Shown piece by piece: positions 2,982 to 13,467 of a stretch of DNA of 20,000 bases. Each line of letters opens with the position of its first letter. The first letter of the stretch is position 1. The notes beneath the pieces are model-generated. The model had not been told where the DNA came from. It searched no databases and saw only the letters and a list, made by a program, of their open reading frames with translations. The position numbers and the translations under genes are program-made. Source of the stretch: an uncultured virus (IMG/VR IMGVR_UViG_3300036715_001702) (lineage: Duplodnaviria > Heunggongvirae > Uroviricota > Caudoviricetes); the IMG/VR virus record IMGVR_UViG_3300036715_001702. One strand, written 5' to 3'.

Positions 2982-3239
2982 TTAAAAATTTGTTTTATTG
3001 TTGAAATCTGTTTGTTCTTTTTTTATTAATTCTAAAAATTTTATCCACTGTTTGTTATCGTTGACTATTGTGTCAATGCCAACTTCTTGTATGTGGTTTG
3101 CTATCATGAAACATCCTTCCAGATTTGAATGCATGTCTAGTTCGAAACATATTCTTGAAGAAGCATAGATACATATATTCATATCAGTTATGTCATATGA
3201 ATTTTCTAAGATCTGCTTGATCAACCTTTCTATTTGCAT
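2982..3239 (-). CDS. Hypothetical protein
   Basis: 85-aa ORF overlapping the upstream stop and abutting the next start. Confidence 0.6.
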   Translation of the reverse strand: MQIERLIKQILENSYDITDMNICIYASSRICFELDMHSNLEGCFMIANHIQEVGIDTIVNDNKQWIKFLELIKKEQTDFNNKTNF

Positions 3240-3784
3240 AATTCTATCAATTTTCCTAGTCTTGGCTCTGCTAATCCTGTTCCATAAATATAAGCATTAT
3301 CTTTAAAAGTTCGAATTCCATATGATCCAAGTTCGCATTCTTTATCTTTTACCATTCCAACTATATCAATTGAACCATCATAGTTCTTGACAATTTTACA
3401 ATTTATGTAATTTTTGAAAAAATTGAAGGCATCAGTAACCATACTGTGCAATATAACACCATTCACATCTTTAGTTTCGATGAGTTCTAATTTCATGAAA
3501 TATTTTCCATGTAGAGAATCTTCGATATCGTCTCTGAAGCAAGGTGTGATTGCACAATATCTGCCTTTAGGAAGGTCTTCATCCTCAATTTTTTGCAAGA
3601 AAGATTGTTCTCCAGAAGCGACTAACACTTTGTCTTCAACAAAGAAATCTTTATGATGCTCAGGTTTTGTATGAACGCTGATATCTGGATAAACGGTCCA
3701 ATCTACATCAGTGTATGTGTAACCCAAGTTTTCGTAATGATCTAGTGCTTCTATAAATCTTCTATAATTGATTATGTTTTCCAT
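3230..3784 (-). CDS. Stand-alone class II aminoacyl-tRNA synthetase-like catalytic core
   Basis: Motif-2-like TPCFRDD..H.KYFMKLE, ASGEQ (TxE-like), ELGSYG and motif-3-like GTGLAEPRL. No tRNA-binding domain. ATG 3784 is the likelier start; the ORF track gives 3814. Confidence 0.65.
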   Translation of the reverse strand: MENIINYRRFIEALDHYENLGYTYTDVDWTVYPDISVHTKPEHHKDFFVEDKVLVASGEQSFLQKIEDEDLPKGRYCAITPCFRDDIEDSLHGKYFMKLELIETKDVNGVILHSMVTDAFNFFKNYINCKIVKNYDGSIDIVGMVKDKECELGSYGIRTFKDNAYIYGTGLAEPRLGKLIELCK

Positions 3785-3791
3785 ATTTAAA

Positions 3792-4862
3792 TTAGTTTCT
3801 GTATCCGTTTTCAAATGCTCTTTTTGTTATATTACTAAATTTTTCAAGATCTTCCATTTTCAATCCTTGATTTTCAGCAAAGGCTCTAATGGCACCATAT
3901 AAATCTGATAGTTCTACCATCATCATAATCTTGCAATCTTGTTCCATAGCATCTTTTAGTTCTTCTAATTCTTCTTCTATTTTCGAAATATCTCCAAGTG
4001 TTCCTTTTTTGATATCTTTTAAATGATAACCTTTTTCTATTATATCAGGGAATATTTTTCCATCATTCCTTATAGAAAAAAGAATTTTGTCTGATGTATT
4101 TTCTGGATATGCTACTTTGCCATGTTCTGATGAAAATAACAATTCGTCATTTGAATTTTTTATTGCATAATCGTATATGCAAGATTTAATCGGTGTATAG
4201 AATAAATCTTTCATCATTTCTTCTTGAGTATAGAATTTTTCTTTCTGATAAGGAACTTCTCTATCATTATATTTATCTATGTTGTGATTTTTGTATTTCA
4301 AAACTTTGTGAGCAATAGGATAAACATGATATCTATGATAAGTTTTATGAATCCCAGTTTCAGACATTTCTATTATCACATTATCAGTATTATCATAAGC
4401 TACTAACATTCCTGTTACAGATTCGTCGTCTCTTATTTTTACTAATGAATTGATATCAATATTCTTATCATAGACTTCGTAGTAATATGTATCGCTGTAT
4501 GAATACAATTTTTCTTTAATCTTTTTCTCTACATCCTTTGTGTTGTAGATCATATCTAATGAACTATCGTCTATAGTATCCAATCCTATCAACAGGCTTT
4601 TTTGTTTTTCGTCTAGCTGTATGACTTTGTAGGGTTCACATAAAGGCCAAAGCTCATTCACTGTATATAAATAATCGTTTATCACATATGTTGTATTTAT
4701 TGTTGATTCATAAACATGATCTATGTTTTCTACATTCATGTTTCCTGATGCATTTTTTATCACTACTAATGAACCTGTTTTTAAGTTTGGATATCCTTCA
4801 TATATTTCAGATAAGAACAAGATCTCGTTAAGATAGTTTCTATGTATGTGATATTTTGCCAT
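3792..4862 (-). CDS. Protein with a C-terminal MazG/HisE-like all-alpha NTP pyrophosphohydrolase domain
   Basis: C-terminal KIEEELEELKDA...ELSDLYGAI fits the ExxE...ExxD metal-binding pattern. The N-terminal ~275 aa are unrecognised. Confidence 0.6.
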   Translation of the reverse strand: MAKYHIHRNYLNEILFLSEIYEGYPNLKTGSLVVIKNASGNMNVENIDHVYESTINTTYVINDYLYTVNELWPLCEPYKVIQLDEKQKSLLIGLDTIDDSSLDMIYNTKDVEKKIKEKLYSYSDTYYYEVYDKNIDINSLVKIRDDESVTGMLVAYDNTDNVIIEMSETGIHKTYHRYHVYPIAHKVLKYKNHNIDKYNDREVPYQKEKFYTQEEMMKDLFYTPIKSCIYDYAIKNSNDELLFSSEHGKVAYPENTSDKILFSIRNDGKIFPDIIEKGYHLKDIKKGTLGDISKIEEELEELKDAMEQDCKIMMMVELSDLYGAIRAFAENQGLKMEDLEKFSNITKRAFENGYRN

Positions 4863-8717: not shown

Positions 8718-8971
8718 AAGATATTAAAAAATCGGCATTGTTTTATTTGTTAGACTATAAAGATAAAACTTTTATAGCGATACACGAAACCAATATTGAG
8801 CAAACTCAGCAGATTGGATTTACGATAGCGTGGAATAAAAATAAAAAAGAATTTGATTATTCATATGGCCCAACATTCATGATGAATGAATATGTAGATC
8901 GTTGCATAGCGAACAAAAGATTTGATATGACAAATTCTTATGAAGAAGCATTGAAACATATCAAAAAATAA
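8705..8971 (+). CDS. Hypothetical protein
   Basis: 88-aa ORF overlapping the ligA stop. Confidence 0.6.
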   Translation: MQSIEDIKKSALFYLLDYKDKTFIAIHETNIEQTQQIGFTIAWNKNKKEFDYSYGPTFMMNEYVDRCIANKRFDMTNSYEEALKHIKK

Positions 8972-8983
8972 TATTTTACTCTA

Positions 8984-9010
8984 AAACTTTTAAAATAAAT
9001 TTTCATATTA
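8984..9010 (+). promoter_or_regulatory. Putative phage promoter AAACTT-N15-ATATTA
   Basis: Recurrent bipartite motif, intergenic, upstream of the H1-like gene. Confidence 0.4.
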
Positions 9011-9055
9011 CATATCTAAATATTAAATTAGCAATAAATAAAACAACAAACAAAT

Positions 9056-9280
9056 ATGGCAACTTCATCAACTAAAAAAGCAGCTCCTAAAAAAGCTGCA
9101 GCGAAAAAGACTGTCGCAGCGAAAGCTCCAGCAAAAAAAGCAACAACTAAAGCTGCACCAGCTAAAAAAGCTGCACCAGCTAAAACTACAACAGCTAAAG
9201 TTGCACCAGCAAAATCTGCTGCTAAGAAAGCTGTAGTGAAGAAATCAGCTCCTAAAAAAGAAGCTGCTCGTCCTCAGTAG
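9056..9280 (+). CDS. Histone H1-like Lys/Ala/Pro-rich DNA-binding protein
   Basis: Repeated KKAAP/KAPAK units, an A-rich translation initiation region and its own terminator. Confidence 0.75.
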   Translation: MATSSTKKAAPKKAAAKKTVAAKAPAKKATTKAAPAKKAAPAKTTTAKVAPAKSAAKKAVVKKSAPKKEAARPQ

Positions 9281-9306
9281 TTATAATAAAAATAGTTAAA
9301 ATAGAT

Positions 9307-9340
9307 AAAAAACTCTAAACATATGTTTAGAGTTTTTTTT
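9307..9340 (+). terminator. Intrinsic terminator (palindromic, likely bidirectional)
   Basis: AAAAAACTCTAAAC-ATAT-GTTTAGAGTTTTTTTT. Confidence 0.85.
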
Positions 9341-9363
9341 GATAAAATATTTTTTATTCAATT

Positions 9364-9390
9364 GAACTTTTGTATATTTGTAAAGTATAA
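9364..9390 (+). promoter_or_regulatory. Promoter region of the leader/tRNA operon
   Basis: TATATTTG at 9373-9380 (Bacteroidota -7 box) and GAACTT-N15-GTATAA. Confidence 0.55.
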
Positions 9391-9397
9391 TATAGTA

Positions 9398-9475
9398 ATG
9401 AAAAACAATTCAACGATATTGACCTTATGTATGATGCTGATTCTGAAGATTGGTACTGGGCTATATATTTGTTAA
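9398..9475 (+). CDS. Putative attenuator leader peptide MKNNSTILTLCMMLILKIGTGLYIC
   Basis: 25-codon ORF between the promoter and a terminator. Codons 6-16 are all Thr/Ile/Leu/Cys/Met, matching the downstream tRNAs. Confidence 0.7.
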   Translation: MKNNSTILTLCMMLILKIGTGLYIC

Positions 9476-9501
9476 ATGTTAGATAAACATATTTTAATAA
9501 T

Positions 9502-9540
9502 AAAAGCTCAGCTCGTAAGGTTGAGTTTTTTTATTTTTAT
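9502..9540 (+). terminator. Intrinsic terminator / attenuator directly upstream of the tRNA array
   Basis: AAAAGCTCAGC-TCGTAAG-GTTGAGTTTTTTT. The 5' arm AGCTCAG (9505-9511) can alternatively pair with CTGGGCT (9456-9462). Confidence 0.75.
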
Positions 9541-9542
9541 TT

Positions 9543-9616
9543 GCCTCGTTAGTAGAGTTGGTTCATACTTCAGATTTAGAATCTGAAGATCGCTGGGTCG
9601 GAACCGGCACGAGGTA
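9543..9616 (+). tRNA. trnL: tRNA-Leu (TAG), short variable loop
   Basis: Acceptor GCCTCGT/ACGAGGT, anticodon arm TCAGA-TTTAGAA-TCTGA, variable loop AGATC, T arm GCTGG-GTCGGAA-CCGGC, discriminator A. Confidence 0.85.
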
Positions 9617-9623
9617 CAAAAAT

Positions 9624-9696
9624 AGTGCATTGATGCAGTTGGTTGACATATTGGACTTAAAATCCAAGTACATCGGATCGTTCCAGATATGCACTA
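9624..9696 (+). tRNA. trnL: tRNA-Leu (TAA), short variable loop
   Basis: Acceptor AGTGCAT/ATGCACT, anticodon arm TTGGA-CTTAAAA-TCCAA, variable loop GTAC, T arm ATCGG-ATCGTTC-CAGAT (one mismatch), discriminator A. Confidence 0.8.
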
Positions 9697-9708
9697 CAAA
9701 ATATAAAT

Positions 9709-9780
9709 TGCCATGTAGCTCAGTGATAGAGCAATTCCCTCATAAGGAATAGGTCTCGAGTTTAATCCTCGACATGGCGA
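9709..9780 (+). tRNA. tRNA with CAT anticodon (elongator Met or Ile2)
   Basis: TGCCATG/CATGGCG, GCTC/GAGC D stem, ATTCC-CTCATAA-GGAAT, TCGAG-TTTAATC-CTCGA. Lacks the three G-C anticodon-stem pairs of initiator tRNA. Confidence 0.85.
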
Positions 9781-9790
9781 CAACTAATAT

Positions 9791-9863
9791 AGTCTTATAT
9801 GTCAGTGGTTAGACGGTCAAACTGATACTTTGAAGGTCGTGTGTTCGAATCACACTAAGACTA
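9791..9863 (+). tRNA. trnI: tRNA-Ile (GAT)
   Basis: AGTCTTA/TAAGACT, TCAAA-CTGATAC-TTTGA, GTGTG-TTCGAAT-CACAC. Confidence 0.9.
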
Positions 9864-9874
9864 CTTTTAAAAAT

Positions 9875-9946
9875 GCTCATATGGCCGAGTGACTAGGTCA
9901 CGATCTGCAAAATCGTTGTACGTTGGTTTGATCCCAACTATGAGCT
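9875..9946 (+). tRNA. trnC: tRNA-Cys (GCA)
   Basis: GCTCATA/TATGAGC, ACGAT-CTGCAAA-ATCGT, GTTGG-TTTGATC-CCAAC, and the U73 discriminator expected for Cys. Confidence 0.9.
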
Positions 9947-9958
9947 CAAAATAAAAAT

Positions 9959-10030
9959 GCCGATATAGTTCAGTGTTAGAATGTCACATTTGTAATGTGA
10001 ATGTCCTGGGTTAGATTCCTAGTATCGGCT
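9959..10030 (+). tRNA. trnT: tRNA-Thr (TGT)
   Basis: GCCGATA/TATCGGC, TCACA-TTTGTAA-TGTGA, CTGGG-TTAGATT-CCTAG. Confidence 0.9.
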
Positions 10031-10054
10031 CCGAATACTGATAGTGGCTCAGAT

Positions 10055-10094
10055 TTTTTCATACATAATAAAAATATTAATTATGTATGAAAAA
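10055..10094 (+). repeat. Perfect 15-bp inverted repeat covering the HNH start codon
   Basis: TTTTTCATACATAAT (10055-10069) pairs with ATTATGTATGAAAAA (10080-10094). ATG 10087 lies inside the right arm. Confidence 0.8.
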
Positions 10095-11265
10095 TAAGAC
10101 TCAGTTTGATTATGAAAAATTAAAAAAAATTATTAGATCAAGGATTGTCAATTGATGAAATTTCATTTGAAATGAAAACATCAATATCAAATGTAAAAAG
10201 AAAAAAAATTGAATTAAAAACTGGATTAAAATATAATCTTAGAATTGTTAAAGAAGTTGAAAAAAAATAAAATGTTTATATTGCAAAAATGATATAAAAA
10301 CAACACCAAATGGACAAAGAAAATTTTGCAGTAGGGTATGCTCTATTTCATATAGAAATCAAAACAGTGATATTAAAAATAAGTGTTTCAATTGTGAAAA
10401 TGAAATAGAATCTTCTGACAAAAGAAGAAAATTTTGTAATAGTTCTTATGCATCAATTTATAATAATAAAATAAGAATTAAAAAAGAAGCTAAGCGTGCT
10501 GAAAAAAGGATATATCATAAAAGAAATAATCAAAATAAAAAAAATGTCAAAATTGTAATAGTATTGTGAAATATTCAAAAAGTGTATATTGTAGTTCTAA
10601 ATGTCAAAATCAATATCAAAGGAAACTAAAATTTGAAAAGATTGAAAATGGAGATTTAACATTATCAACAAGAGTGTATAATATTAAGTAACTGATTTTA
10701 TATCAATTTATATAAAAATATTTAAACTAAACCATTTTTATATAATATATGCTCTATTATCAATTAATTGATTAATTGATTAATGTTCATTGACATGTTG
10801 GTTGTATGAAATTTACAAATTCATACGTAAAACAAATGTAATAAAAATACATTTTTCGCACTGAAAAGTGCGAATATGAAATATTCGGTAGGGATGAGTA
10901 AACCCGAACCTGAACAAGAGATTGTTCTAAAAGATCGTGGAGATGCTGGGTTACTGGTGTCTATGAAGCAATAAGTAAAAAATGTTGGATAATTTTTCAA
11001 TATTTTGCATTACTATAAATTATATCTTATAGATAAATATGGAGCAAAATGTATGATATGCGGTTGGAATGAAATCAATCCTAAAAGTGGTAAAGTTCCA
11101 ATTGAATTAGAACATAGTGATGGAAATTCTGCCAATAATAATTTAAAAAATTTAAAATTATTATGTCCTAATCATCACTCATTAACTCCTACTTATAAAG
11201 GCTTAAATAAAGGTAATGGTAGAGCAAATAGAATGAAAAGATATCATGATTGTAAATCATGGTAA
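10087..11265 (+). pseudogene. Disrupted HNH homing endonuclease (HTH, three CxxC..(F/Y)CSxxC Zn-finger repeats, HNH)
   Basis: Fragments LLDQGLSIDEISFEMKTSISNVKR, KCLYC..RKFCSRVC, KCFNC..RKFCNSSY, KCQNC..VYCSSKC, then CMICGW..IELEHSDGNSANN..NLKLLCPNHH. Frameshifts at A8 runs near 10125, 10263 and 10540, plus a 337-bp insertion. Confidence 0.8.
10677..11013 (+). mobile_element. 337-bp non-coding insertion, probable non-autonomous IS200/605- or IS607-derived element with an omega-RNA-like right end
   Basis: Removing it restores the HNH frame (..TRV|YKLYLIDKYG..). TATAA occurs at both junctions. It has several hairpins, and the 3' part GGTAGGGATGAGTAAACCCGAAC..CGTGGAGA..TATGAAGCAATAAG resembles tnpB 3'-end sequence. 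Confidence 0.6.
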
Positions 11266-11366
11266 ACATAGGTTTATATAACATACAGTAAAAAATATTG
11301 TTTAAATAAACGCCAAGTGTTAGTTATATAAAAACTATGAAATAATAATGAATAAAATCTTAGTGT

Positions 11367-12647
11367 ATGGAAACAAAAAATAAAATATACGTTAACGTTG
11401 CATTTCCTTATCCTTCAGGAGCAGGATTACATGTAGGTCATAGTTACAATTATGCTATCATTGATAGCTACTGTAGATGGTTAACATATTATCAAAACAA
11501 AGAAGTGTTTCAACCTTTTGGTTACGACGCACATGGTTTACCGACGGAATTATATGCTGCTAAACATAATAGAGAACCAAGAGATGTAGCTTATGAAAAC
11601 ATTAACAAATTCAGAAATCAGATGCAAGATATGCATACTAACTATGTAGAAAAATTAATCACATCGGATACATCTTATCAAAAATGGACACAATGGCTGT
11701 TTTTAAAATTAAAGGAACATGGATTATGTTATAAGAAGAAAGCTGTAGTTTGTAGATGTCCCAGTTGCGAAACAGTAGTTTCTAATGAACAAGTAGAAAA
11801 CGGGAAATGTGAAAGATGTTCCACCCCTGTAGAACAAAAAGAAATGGATCAGTGGTATTTCAAGATCACTGATTACAGAGAAAGATTAATTAAAAATTTA
11901 GGACATTTAGATTATCCTGCAAAGACGAAAAAGATGCAGATCAATTGGTTAGAATCTATTACTGATTGGTGTGTATCAAGACAACGTAAATGGGGATGTC
12001 CTATTCCTATAGAAGGAGAGCTGGACACTATAGATACATTTGTTGATTCAAGCATATACTATATCAGATATAATGATCCTGAAAACGAAAATGAATTATG
12101 CTCGAAAGATAAATACAAACAAGTCGATTTATATGTGATAGGTTCTGAACACTGTAACAGACATTTGATCTATGCAAGATTTATCCATATGTTTTTATAT
12201 GATATCGGATTAGTTCCTGTTGAAGAACCTTTCGTGAAAGTGATTCATCAAGGTCACATCACAAAAGACGGTTTCAAAATGAGCAAGACTAAAGGAAACA
12301 CTGTTACTCCTGATGATTACGATTCGGATGAAATCAGAATGTATTTATGTTTCATTGGTCATTATTTTGATGGTGGAGATTGGAGCGATAAAAATATAGT
12401 CGGCATTAAACGCTTCTTCAACAGAATTGATAAATGGTTAGAAGCTCCTGGAAATGATGATATATCTAAAGAAATAGATATAATGAAATCCAAGATTGAT
12501 AAGTTTGTTACAGATTTTAAATTCAATAAAGTTGTTAGCACAATGATGGAATTTTACAATGATCATAAGAATAAAAACATCTCTATAGAAAATATTACAG
12601 AGTTTAAGAAAGTGTTAGGTTGTTTTGCACCAAAAAAGTACAGTTAA
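11367..12647 (+). CDS. leuS: Minimal leucyl-tRNA synthetase (426 aa)
   Basis: FPYPSGAGLHVGH (HIGH motif), GYDAHGLPTE, Zn knuckle CPSC..CERC, DWCVSRQRKWGCPIP, DTFVDSS, EEPF and KMSKTKGN. Confidence 0.92.
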   Translation: METKNKIYVNVAFPYPSGAGLHVGHSYNYAIIDSYCRWLTYYQNKEVFQPFGYDAHGLPTELYAAKHNREPRDVAYENINKFRNQMQDMHTNYVEKLITSDTSYQKWTQWLFLKLKEHGLCYKKKAVVCRCPSCETVVSNEQVENGKCERCSTPVEQKEMDQWYFKITDYRERLIKNLGHLDYPAKTKKMQINWLESITDWCVSRQRKWGCPIPIEGELDTIDTFVDSSIYYIRYNDPENENELCSKDKYKQVDLYVIGSEHCNRHLIYARFIHMFLYDIGLVPVEEPFVKVIHQGHITKDGFKMSKTKGNTVTPDDYDSDEIRMYLCFIGHYFDGGDWSDKNIVGIKRFFNRIDKWLEAPGNDDISKEIDIMKSKIDKFVTDFKFNKVVSTMMEFYNDHKNKNISIENITEFKKVLGCFAPKKYS

Positions 12648-12663
12648 AAGCTGTACTTTTTTT
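12632..12663 (+). terminator. Intrinsic terminator overlapping the leuS stop
   Basis: AAAAAAGTACAG-TTAAAAG-CTGTACTTTTTTT. Confidence 0.85.
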
Positions 12664-12696
12664 ATTTTTGGTTATTAATAACTAAAATTTTTTATT

Positions 12697-12704
12697 TATA
12701 TTTG
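12697..12704 (+). promoter_or_regulatory. Bacteroidota-type -7 promoter box TATATTTG
   Basis: Intergenic, after a terminator and 16 nt before ATG 12721. Confidence 0.5.
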
Positions 12705-12720
12705 TTCCAAATTATTTAAC

Positions 12721-13467
12721 ATGATAACAATTCAACGCAAAATCACAGATAAAGTGCAAATAGATATTGCTAACTTCTTTACAAAATGGAATGGTCAATT
12801 CACACTAGAAGAAGTGTGTAAAGTTTTGATAAAGATGAACTACCGCTATGACAAAAATGAGGTTTATGAAACGATCAAAAAGAACCAATCTTCTCTTAAA
12901 TCTGATAAAGTTGTATTTGTCAACGATACAGATCTGATAGTAGATGTTTTAGAATTATGTGCTAATAACATGGCTAAAACCTATATAGGGCAAATCTCAC
13001 ATATAATCAAAATGATCAAACCTTTGATGGATTATAGAGTGATCGGAAATATATTATACAAAGAGTGTGTTAAAGATAACTCTTTATATAAATGTATAGA
13101 CGAGAAAGGTGTAGGTGTATACACTTTGGCTGAACGAAATTTTGAAAAGTATGTAAAAACTGAAGTTGGTAAATTTTCAGGTTTATCTGATCATACAAAT
13201 AATAAAAGTAATAATATGGGAAGAGGAGGAAAAAGAAGAGTTTTTCTGAAACCTCTTGCTACAGACATAGGAAAGATGGATGCTCATTATCTGAAGATGA
13301 AATATGATGAAGATTCATGGGTTGTTTCAAATTTGAAAAATAAGGATGATATCATATTATTGAACGGTTCCGAATCTCCTGATCATGTAAGAACTTTCTA
13401 TTCGAGAGAGTATAAAGTAAAACATGATGATGTGAGAAATCGTCGTCTAAAAAATTACCCATGGTAG
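12721..13467 (+). CDS. Hypothetical protein
   Basis: 248-aa ORF, no recognised motif. Confidence 0.65.
   Translation: MITIQRKITDKVQIDIANFFTKWNGQFTLEEVCKVLIKMNYRYDKNEVYETIKKNQSSLKSDKVVFVNDTDLIVDVLELCANNMAKTYIGQISHIIKMIKPLMDYRVIGNILYKECVKDNSLYKCIDEKGVGVYTLAERNFEKYVKTEVGKFSGLSDHTNNKSNNMGRGGKRRVFLKPLATDIGKMDAHYLKMKYDEDSWVVSNLKNKDDIILLNGSESPDHVRTFYSREYKVKHDDVRNRRLKNYPW

Follow-up and report, generated by a model that had tools for sequence, protein, structure and literature searches.

The 20,000-nucleotide stretch of the uncultured virus record IMGVR_UViG_3300036715_001702 (IMG/VR), called the window here, carries a gene at positions 11367-12647 whose product is a bacterial-type leucyl-tRNA synthetase (LeuRS) core, and this 426-residue protein is referred to as mini-LeuRS. 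It belongs to a family of equally reduced proteins from huge phages, and judging from sequence comparisons and a predicted structure it is probably a working, non-editing LeuRS that would bind tRNA by the acceptor end only.

When the translated gene was compared with NCBIfam, the model leuS_bact (TIGR00396) was matched in four separate stretches with an E value of 4.3e-106, followed by the models for valyl-tRNA synthetase (2.1e-39) and methionyl-tRNA synthetase (8e-36), and in Pfam the class I synthetase families tRNA-synt_1g (2.3e-37) and tRNA-synt_1 (3.1e-36) were matched. The best 17 distinct PDB sequences were LeuRS without exception, and the top solved relative was the enzyme from Mycoplasma mobile (PDB 3ZIU, E 6.5e-74). 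A structure predicted by AlphaFold2 with a 39-row alignment as input had a mean pLDDT of 93.1 and a pTM of 0.90, with no segment below 50, and when it was compared with the PDB by Foldseek, M. mobile LeuRS again came first (TM-score 0.92, normalised to the query) and other bacterial LeuRS came next. Residues F13, Y15, D54, F225, S228, Y231, H262 and H266 align with F41, Y43, D80, F501, S504, Y507, H541 and H545 of Thermus thermophilus LeuRS, which we take to be residues of the leucine pocket and the adenylate site. The model retains the whole Rossmann fold, the zinc knuckle ZN1 and a four-helix remnant of the anticodon domain. A first-pass annotation, made from the letters of the window, had called the protein urzyme-like, a description that does not fit a protein keeping all these parts when urzymes comprise about 130 residues.

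The catalytic motifs had been described as intact in that annotation, and indeed both HVGH, in the place of HIGH, and KMSKT can be read directly, and the ZN1 knuckle is also kept (Table 1). Residues H22, G24 and H25 of HVGH are unchanged in all 24 rows of the mini-LeuRS family. Alignment with the 878 residues of T. thermophilus LeuRS indicates which parts are gone. Residues 5-195 of mini-LeuRS align with residues 33-224, the N-terminal 30 residues or so being absent; residues 198-215 align with 419-436, leaving about 225-418 (the editing domain CP1) without counterpart; residues 211-299 align with 487-578, leaving about 437-486 (the second zinc insert, ZN2) without counterpart; and the sequence from residue 304 on aligns with 637 on, leaving about 579-636 (the leucine-specific domain) without counterpart. 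The final aligned residue, 398, corresponds to residue 753. In the 39-row alignment, which contains relatives of all lengths, the protein ends at the motif FAP whereas full-length enzymes extend about 90-110 residues further, so that about 90 residues of the helical bundle are kept and the rest of the anticodon-binding domain and the C-terminal tRNA-binding domain are absent. The joins at which CP1 and the second zinc insert had been said to be missing are therefore borne out, as is the end at FAP before the end of the bundle, and the N-terminal residues have to be added to the list of lost parts. The leucine-specific domain, also listed as lost, is absent as stated, but not through a deletion of its own: because three full-length relatives in the alignment lack it too, its absence is a lineage trait, and Bacillus subtilis LeuRS is likewise reported to be without it (PMC3643597).

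The open reading frame (ORF) proposed earlier was also confirmed, except that it ends at 12647, the earlier end at 12663 taking in a terminator-like hairpin which, as had been noticed, overlaps the stop codon. The gene and its 3' end were reproduced with 0 differences and 0 gaps in contigs of four public DNA runs (for example records 14 and 15 of X2 and record 30 of X4); as these runs may include the source sample of the window, the identity only rules out that the gene end is an artefact of a single assembly.

Table 1. Positions in the window of the mini-LeuRS gene, its motifs and junctions, and neighbouring features.
Feature	Position	Strand	Evidence
mini-LeuRS coding sequence, 426 aa + TAA stop	11367..12647	+	ORF, Pfam, NCBIfam, PDB alignments, predicted model
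HIGH motif, HVGH, residues 22-25	11430..11441	+	read from sequence
ZN1 zinc knuckle, residues 131-151 (CxxC...CxRC; C131, C134, C148, C151)	11757..11819	+	E. coli chain alignment
CP1 junction (~190 aa gone), residues 195-198	11949..11960	+	alignments
ZN2-insert junction (~50-55 aa gone), residues 215-218	12009..12020	+	alignments
TKDG at the leucine-specific domain site, then KMSKT, residues 300-308	12264..12290	+	M. mobile LeuRS alignment
KMSKT, residues 304-308	12276..12290	+	read from sequence
Terminator-like hairpin over the TAA stop (12645-12647)	12632..12662	+	14-pair stem, then T run; fold z-score -3.1
tRNA-Leu(UAG), 75 nt, type I, short variable loop, G1-U72, A73	9543..9617	+	ARAGORN; Rfam tRNA 49.8 bits; fold
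tRNA-Leu(UAA), 74 nt, type I, A73, reads TTA	9624..9697	+	ARAGORN, Rfam, sequence and fold
tRNA-Met(CAU), Ile(GAU), Cys(GCA), Thr(UGU)	9709..10032	+	ARAGORN, Rfam
HNH endonuclease domain ORF, 86 aa, between tRNA cluster and mini-LeuRS	11005..11265	+	PHROGs

Homologues of about 430 residues, which the first-pass annotation had proposed to look for in phage genomes, occur in huge phages in large numbers. The architecture and end point of mini-LeuRS are shared by at least 115 clusters of proteins of 400-440 residues (55-67% identity), nearly all of them on viral contigs of up to about 780 kb. The best 120 protein matches included 119 other than the window protein; these showed 60-67% identity, covered 94-100% of the query and came from contigs as long as 779,616 bases, and all but six of them had a length of 410-437 residues. 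In an exhaustive search against 50% representatives the mini forms collapsed to a few, such as P0121 (429 residues), and intermediate LeuRS forms of 499-639 residues were found as well. Searching phage records by tblastn identified a copy of 422 residues with 65% identity in the 634,780-bp uncultured phage LR745206.1 and a more distant form of 508 residues, without CP1 or tail, in the 735,411-bp phage LR756501.1. In IMG/VR, 53 of the 80 best loci were full-length matches (51-65% identity, contigs of up to 607,744 bases). In a set of prokaryotes with one genome per species, the mini type was present in 1 of the best 80 loci of at least 599 relatives, this locus being a 2.9-kb contig of a Bacteroidota metagenome-assembled genome.

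A maximum-likelihood tree of 40 rows has only a midpoint root, and no succession of events is read from it. In this tree the mini forms, including the window protein, and the 530-residue form P0122 constitute one clade with a support of 100/100. P0122 (loci L057-L059 and L061), which is sister to the mini clade, has a CP1 remnant of about 110 residues, is without ZN2 or C-terminal domain and may be an intermediate stage of reduction. As the other CP1-less enzymes (499-639 residues) group beside three different full-length enzymes, CP1 was lost several times, and among the CP1-less LeuRS compared here the phage mini clade is the most reduced group. In the literature no description was found of a phage LeuRS without CP1 and C-terminal domain; in PMC7162821, phage synthetases are treated in the main text in general terms only, and the supplements may list such genes.

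Two observations on reduced synthetases outside the mini clade were made in passing. A LeuRS of about 588 residues without CP1 but with ZN2 insert and C-terminal domain was found on a contig of the cyanobacterium Calothrix anomala (L133, 3022-4788) and also at L134; in its architecture this enzyme of a free-living bacterium is of the M. mobile type, and the short linker at the CP1 site resembles that of M. mobile (PMC3561953). Further class Ia synthetase-like frames in G001, G003, G004 and W01 are short for their kind (454-516, 666 and 739-749 residues), and downsizing in huge-phage genomes may reach beyond LeuRS.

Ratios of nonsynonymous to synonymous substitution (dN/dS) were calculated for 60 distinct coding sequences of the mini-LeuRS family. 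Over the 195 of 1770 pairs with 0.05 < dS < 1.5 the median was 0.22 (range 0.03-0.57), and in the 15 closest pairs values of 0.045-0.10 were obtained. The family is under purifying selection. For the window copy, dS was finite in 23 of 59 pairs, and metagenome and protein searches for close relatives that would give a window-specific dN/dS identified none, the best having 66-67% identity. The streamlining had been attributed to selection in the first-pass annotation, and this view is upheld by the abundance of the same architecture in huge phages, by the low dN/dS and by the searches described below, in which the missing domains were not found elsewhere. Its length, which is about half the normal one, and a fragmented HNH endonuclease gene directly upstream could raise the suspicion that the gene is instead the decaying remnant of a leuS captured from a host. 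Such decay is extremely improbable and is ruled out by the conservation data: architecture and end point are common to at least 115 clusters, dN/dS is only 0.05-0.10 in the closest pairs, there are no internal stops, a terminator lies at the stop codon, and the gene is identical in contigs of four runs.

Residues Y15, D54, R150, Q162, F225, S228, Y231, E261, H262, H266, K304, M305 and K307 are unchanged in 115 of 115 family members, and the window copy keeps all 13 of these positions; E141 is found in 110 of the 115. In the LeuRS of Escherichia coli, Y15 corresponds to Tyr43, N140/E141 to Asn168/Glu169, R150 to Arg178 and Q162 to Gln190. According to a 2026 study of the ZN domain of the E. coli enzyme (PMC13454842), Tyr43 is a gate over the pocket, Arg178 forms a salt bridge to the gamma-phosphate of ATP, Glu169 contacts C75 of the tRNA and Gln190 contacts the tRNA acceptor end. 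That residues handling the tRNA 3' end are conserved argues, more strongly than anything else in the sequence, for a protein that still loads leucine onto tRNA and does not stop at the adenylate.

A cluster of six tRNA genes (9543-10032) lies about 1.3-1.8 kb upstream of the mini-LeuRS gene, and a Rfam scan of 8900-12800 with E values up to 1 detected these six tRNAs and otherwise two chance-level matches. Both tRNA-Leu of the cluster have a variable loop of 4-5 nt and are of type I. Almost all bacterial tRNA-Leu are reported to be of type II, Streptomyces coelicolor having been described as the first bacterium with both types, and E. coli LeuRS failed to leucylate the type I tRNA-Leu of S. 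coelicolor (PMC6614811). Linkage was evaluated in the 35 of 60 distinct loci that extend at least 3 kb on each side of the gene. A tRNA gene was present within 3 kb in 20 of these 35 loci and a tRNA-Leu gene in 13, and tRNA-Leu made up 51 of the 121 tRNAs within 3 kb versus 11 of the 89 located farther away in these loci (Fisher 1.8e-6), which is an indication only since the loci are related. A type I tRNA-Leu adjoins mini-LeuRS in 10 of the 35 loci and is also found beside the distant 508-residue form (loci L002, L056, L062 and L064). Among the first 33 distinct short tRNA-Leu, 31 have A73, as judged by eye from an alignment. When 49 distinct short tRNA-Leu were compared with 552 phage tRNAs, the nearest one was a tRNA-Leu in 48 cases, and the nearest non-short neighbour was a long-arm tRNA-Leu in 34, so that most of them look like tRNA-Leu that have lost their arm; the tRNA-Leu(UAG) of the window is an outlier among them without clear kin. 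It is suggestive that arm-less tRNAs occur beside an enzyme lacking the regions that contact the variable arm. An obligatory pairing of mini-LeuRS with type I tRNA-Leu was considered and rejected, as the complete genome G003 has four tRNA-Leu, all of 80-88 nt; in the 607,744-bp phage genome G001, one of seven tRNA-Leu is short.

Some further peculiarities of tRNA genes were noted. Two tRNAs of G001 with the anticodon CUA, called tRNA-Pyl by ARAGORN, are possible amber suppressors, and a tRNA in LR745206.1 (L001, 8534-8607) received a four-base anticodon call from the same program. In the 23 ORFs of the window ATA is the commonest isoleucine codon (245 of 478) and the sole tRNA-Ile of the cluster has the anticodon GAU; the CAU tRNA called Met could be an ATA-reading tRNA-Ile2.

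The mini-LeuRS gene encodes nearly all of its leucines by one codon. TTA accounts for 19 of its 22 leucine codons, a share reached by none of 15 other long frames of the window; over the remaining 22 ORFs there it is 153 of 427 (binomial 1.5e-6). In the 42 loci with enough flanking coding sequence, the top leucine codon had a median share of 0.76 in the gene versus 0.18 elsewhere (Wilcoxon 3e-10). The favoured codon was TTG in 26 loci, TTA in 9, CTG in 4 and CTT in 3, and it is often rare in the phage otherwise, one example being a codon used 26 times out of 27 in the gene versus 6% elsewhere. Choosing the top codon biases its share upward; the same measure was applied to eight other amino acids, and because the excess was 0.54 for leucine versus 0.05-0.12 for arginine, serine, alanine, glycine, proline, threonine, valine and isoleucine, the bias is leucine-specific. 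In 5 of 56 related loci, three of them clear, a short ORF with a run of leucines is located upstream of the gene, reminiscent of the leader-peptide attenuators of amino-acid operons and pheST. In the three clear cases the gene uses TTG for 18 of 18, 20 of 20 and 19 of 19 leucines, and the leaders use other leucine codons.

As a working enzyme, mini-LeuRS would activate leucine with ATP and pass it to tRNA-Leu. Since the C-terminal and leucine-specific domains, by which cellular enzymes contact the elbow and the variable arm, are gone, we propose that the tRNA would be gripped solely at its acceptor end, by A73, the CCA terminus and the first base pairs. Such an enzyme would be blind to the variable arm and might serve long-arm tRNA-Leu and the arm-less tRNA-Leu of the phage alike. 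As CP1 is absent, post-transfer editing would not take place and the enzyme may be error-prone. Its role would be to maintain the supply of Leu-tRNA for phage translation. A precedent is given by M. mobile LeuRS, which functions without CP1 or leucine-specific domain (PMC3643597).

Several observations weigh against such a working enzyme, concerning its model score and lost tRNA-binding parts, possible partners beyond the window, the divergence of the window copy, and two null results around the leucine codons. With leuS_bact the protein scores 355.9 bits and does not reach the equivalog cut-off of 548.4, which is expected as half of the model positions are absent. The LeuRS of E. coli and that of T. 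thermophilus no longer aminoacylate once the C-terminal domain is deleted (PMC3561953), and of the three elements said to hold the acceptor end during transfer (PMC13454842), mini-LeuRS keeps only the ZN domain. Both the score and the effect of the deletion would suit a protein that stops after activating leucine and, although it may bind tRNA-Leu, leaves it uncharged; it would then be a paralog with a regulatory or sensing role, comparable to LeuRS-I of Sulfolobaceae, which is reported to make leucyl-adenylate and to bind tRNA without charging it (PMC9437257). We consider this unlikely, as an enzyme restricted to the adenylate would not need the residues that hold C75 and the CCA end, and these are kept (E141 in 110 of 115 members, Q162 in 115 of 115). 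The tight linkage of the gene to tRNA-Leu clusters and the report that huge phages carry up to 15 synthetases plus their own tRNAs (PMC7162821) also speak for charging.

A second LeuRS, or a separate tRNA-binding protein, could be encoded beyond the 20-kb window. Mini-LeuRS might then charge only with a helper, a phage or host protein that provides elbow binding in trans like the beta subunit in Aquifex aeolicus LeuRS, a split enzyme that works in pieces (PMC3643597, PMC3561953); in this phage the domain searches covered the 20-kb window. When 27 pieces from relatives, representing CP1, the ZN2 region and the C-terminal and N-terminal parts, were compared with the window by tblastn, the best E value was 0.04, and the C-terminal pieces had no match. 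A search with leuS_bact (model length 843) was made in five phage genomes of relatives, 476-635 kb in size and in four cases 97-100% complete according to CheckV. The model matched the mini gene at positions of about 22-221, 411-428, 484-570 and 604-760 and other class Ia synthetases weakly, and in these genomes nothing was found to match at about 760-843, nor was there a free-standing LeuRS CP1. Separately encoded versions of the missing domains were thus found neither in the window nor in the five genomes. No constant neighbour gene family of mini-LeuRS was detected, the best one being present in 9 of 60 loci, and the sole neighbour family shared with the window is that of the HNH endonuclease, a mobile gene at scattered positions in 8 of 60 loci and no conserved partner. 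A small, fast-evolving tRNA-binding protein encoded far off would escape the window, genome and neighbour searches alike. Taken together, dependence on a helper has in our estimate about one chance in eight. Separately, a conserved ORF of about 105 residues was seen directly downstream of mini-LeuRS in 9 of 60 loci (L020, 11355-11678; L095, 11387-11698; and 7 others); it does not occur in the window.

The window copy, which shares 56-67% identity with the 114 other members, is among the most divergent of the family, with a branch of 0.64 versus a median of 0.27 in the tree. It departs from the family at 19 of the 198 columns that are at least 90% conserved, versus a median of 3, a count that is inflated because all comparison sequences had been collected as matches to the window protein. 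One departure is Ala12, at the site of Met40 in the E. coli and T. thermophilus enzymes, where 109 of 115 members have Met and 5 have Ala; others are F56H, G258I and M297H. Met40 is a residue of the amino-acid pocket, and M40A and M40G are among the substitutions by which the pocket of the E. coli enzyme has been enlarged to take unnatural amino acids (PMC6537655). It can be speculated that a pocket widened by Ala12, in an enzyme without editing site, could loosen specificity. The window copy might thus have drifted to an altered amino-acid specificity or a relaxed function, the rest of the family being ordinary LeuRS. Its intact frame, the confident model and the conservation of all 13 invariant positions make this improbable, and the recurrence of Ala12 in 5 of 115 members means that the family tolerates this residue.

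A more far-reaching version of the working-enzyme reading, which we regard as a tentative possibility, is a leucine channel private to the phage, in which an enzyme that binds the acceptor end only, a natural reader of the 'operational RNA code', charges arm-less tRNA-Leu and has its own mRNA written in one leucine codon. Arm-less type I tRNA-Leu would be chargeable by mini-LeuRS and not by a host LeuRS of the E. coli kind, the single-codon mRNA would tie the synthesis of LeuRS to one tRNA-Leu isoacceptor or insulate it, and the phage could keep decoding leucine while charging by the host is limiting or under attack. This idea is limited by genome G003, in which all four tRNA-Leu are of type II, and by the anticodons near the gene, one matching the favoured leucine codon being found in 16 of 25 loci where shuffling gave a mean of 15.4 (P 0.48). 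No leucine-run leader or attenuator was found upstream of the window gene, where the space is occupied by the HNH endonuclease gene.

Among known enzymes, M. mobile LeuRS (637 residues) resembles mini-LeuRS in being bacterial-type, in lacking CP1 and in having a tetrapeptide at the leucine-specific site (GKDG, compared with TKDG; PMC3643597). However, it keeps about 80 residues at ZN2 (about 274-352) and about 90 residues past the end point of mini-LeuRS (about 546-637), and it is a cellular housekeeping enzyme, whereas the phage clade is separate in the tree. The LeuAC urzyme of about 130 residues, which is without CP1 and the anticodon-binding domain, activates leucine (PMC9026127, bioRxiv 10.1101/2025.04.05.647346); it is engineered and has about one third of the size, whereas the phage protein is natural and has Rossmann fold, ZN1 and four anticodon-domain helices. 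LeuRS-I of Sulfolobaceae and LeuRS2 of haloarchaea are extra LeuRS copies in which the editing or C-terminal region is damaged (PMC9437257). These are archaeal-type, full-length and charge poorly or not at all, whereas in mini-LeuRS the catalytic and CCA-handling residues are strictly conserved. Human mitochondrial and S. coelicolor LeuRS charge tRNA-Leu without long variable arm (PMC6614811), but both are full-length, and the S. coelicolor enzyme uses for its type I tRNA the leucine-specific domain, which the phage enzyme lacks together with the C-terminal domain.

From work on E. coli and T. thermophilus LeuRS the C-terminal domain is regarded as indispensable for charging, and a large, selected natural family without it would either overturn this as a general rule or point to a new mode of holding tRNA. 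With about 420 residues, mini-LeuRS would be the smallest natural LeuRS and would permit a test of the class Ia minimum for reading acceptor-end identity. If it does not edit, mistranslation as in Mycoplasma is possible, which bears on the tolerance or use of statistical proteomes by phages. Arm-less tRNA-Leu in phages and a synthetase gene written in one leucine codon are each unreported as far as our literature search reaches, and they suggest that the enzyme and one tRNA isoacceptor are connected by a feedback. Being compact and indifferent to the tRNA body, such a LeuRS, together with type I tRNA-Leu, might also serve as an orthogonal pair for genetic-code engineering.

The window is AT-rich (24-35% G+C in 1-kb bins) and contains phage-type genes for an endolysin, a NAD-dependent DNA ligase, a DnaJ-like protein, a guanylate kinase and an HNH endonuclease; no near-identical match to the 20-kb window was obtained by megablast among 50,697 deposited phage records. 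On the minus strand, an ORF of 194 residues (3230-3814) gave a match (E 1e-41) to PHROG 4806, which carries the label 'histidyl tRNA synthetase', and no Pfam synthetase match at E values up to 1; this label is doubtful. An Ala/Lys-rich ORF of 74 residues (9056-9280) has a weak match to the histone H1-like nucleoprotein HC2 (E 1.7e-4, below the cut-off), and its repeats show raised depth and varying contig joints.

Between the tRNA cluster and mini-LeuRS, a homing-endonuclease-like gene lies in pieces (10087-11265), with a helix-turn-helix-like start and Cys-rich repeats in shifting frames. It breaks at A runs near 10120 and 10260, and a gap of 300 nt and the intact HNH ORF follow. Contigs of the public runs have identical letters over 10034-10704, so that the breaks are not peculiar to one assembly. 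Over 10661-11113 the summed contig depth was 14-62 in all four DNA runs, compared with some 4-6 across the LeuRS gene, and variants and an 8-base deletion were present. The sequence from 10780 to 11000 has a better fold than any of 200 shuffles (z -3.8) and no match in Rfam, and neither the window nor the loci of relatives contain it a second time; the region 10661-11113 may thus hold a structured element that is repeated or shared widely.

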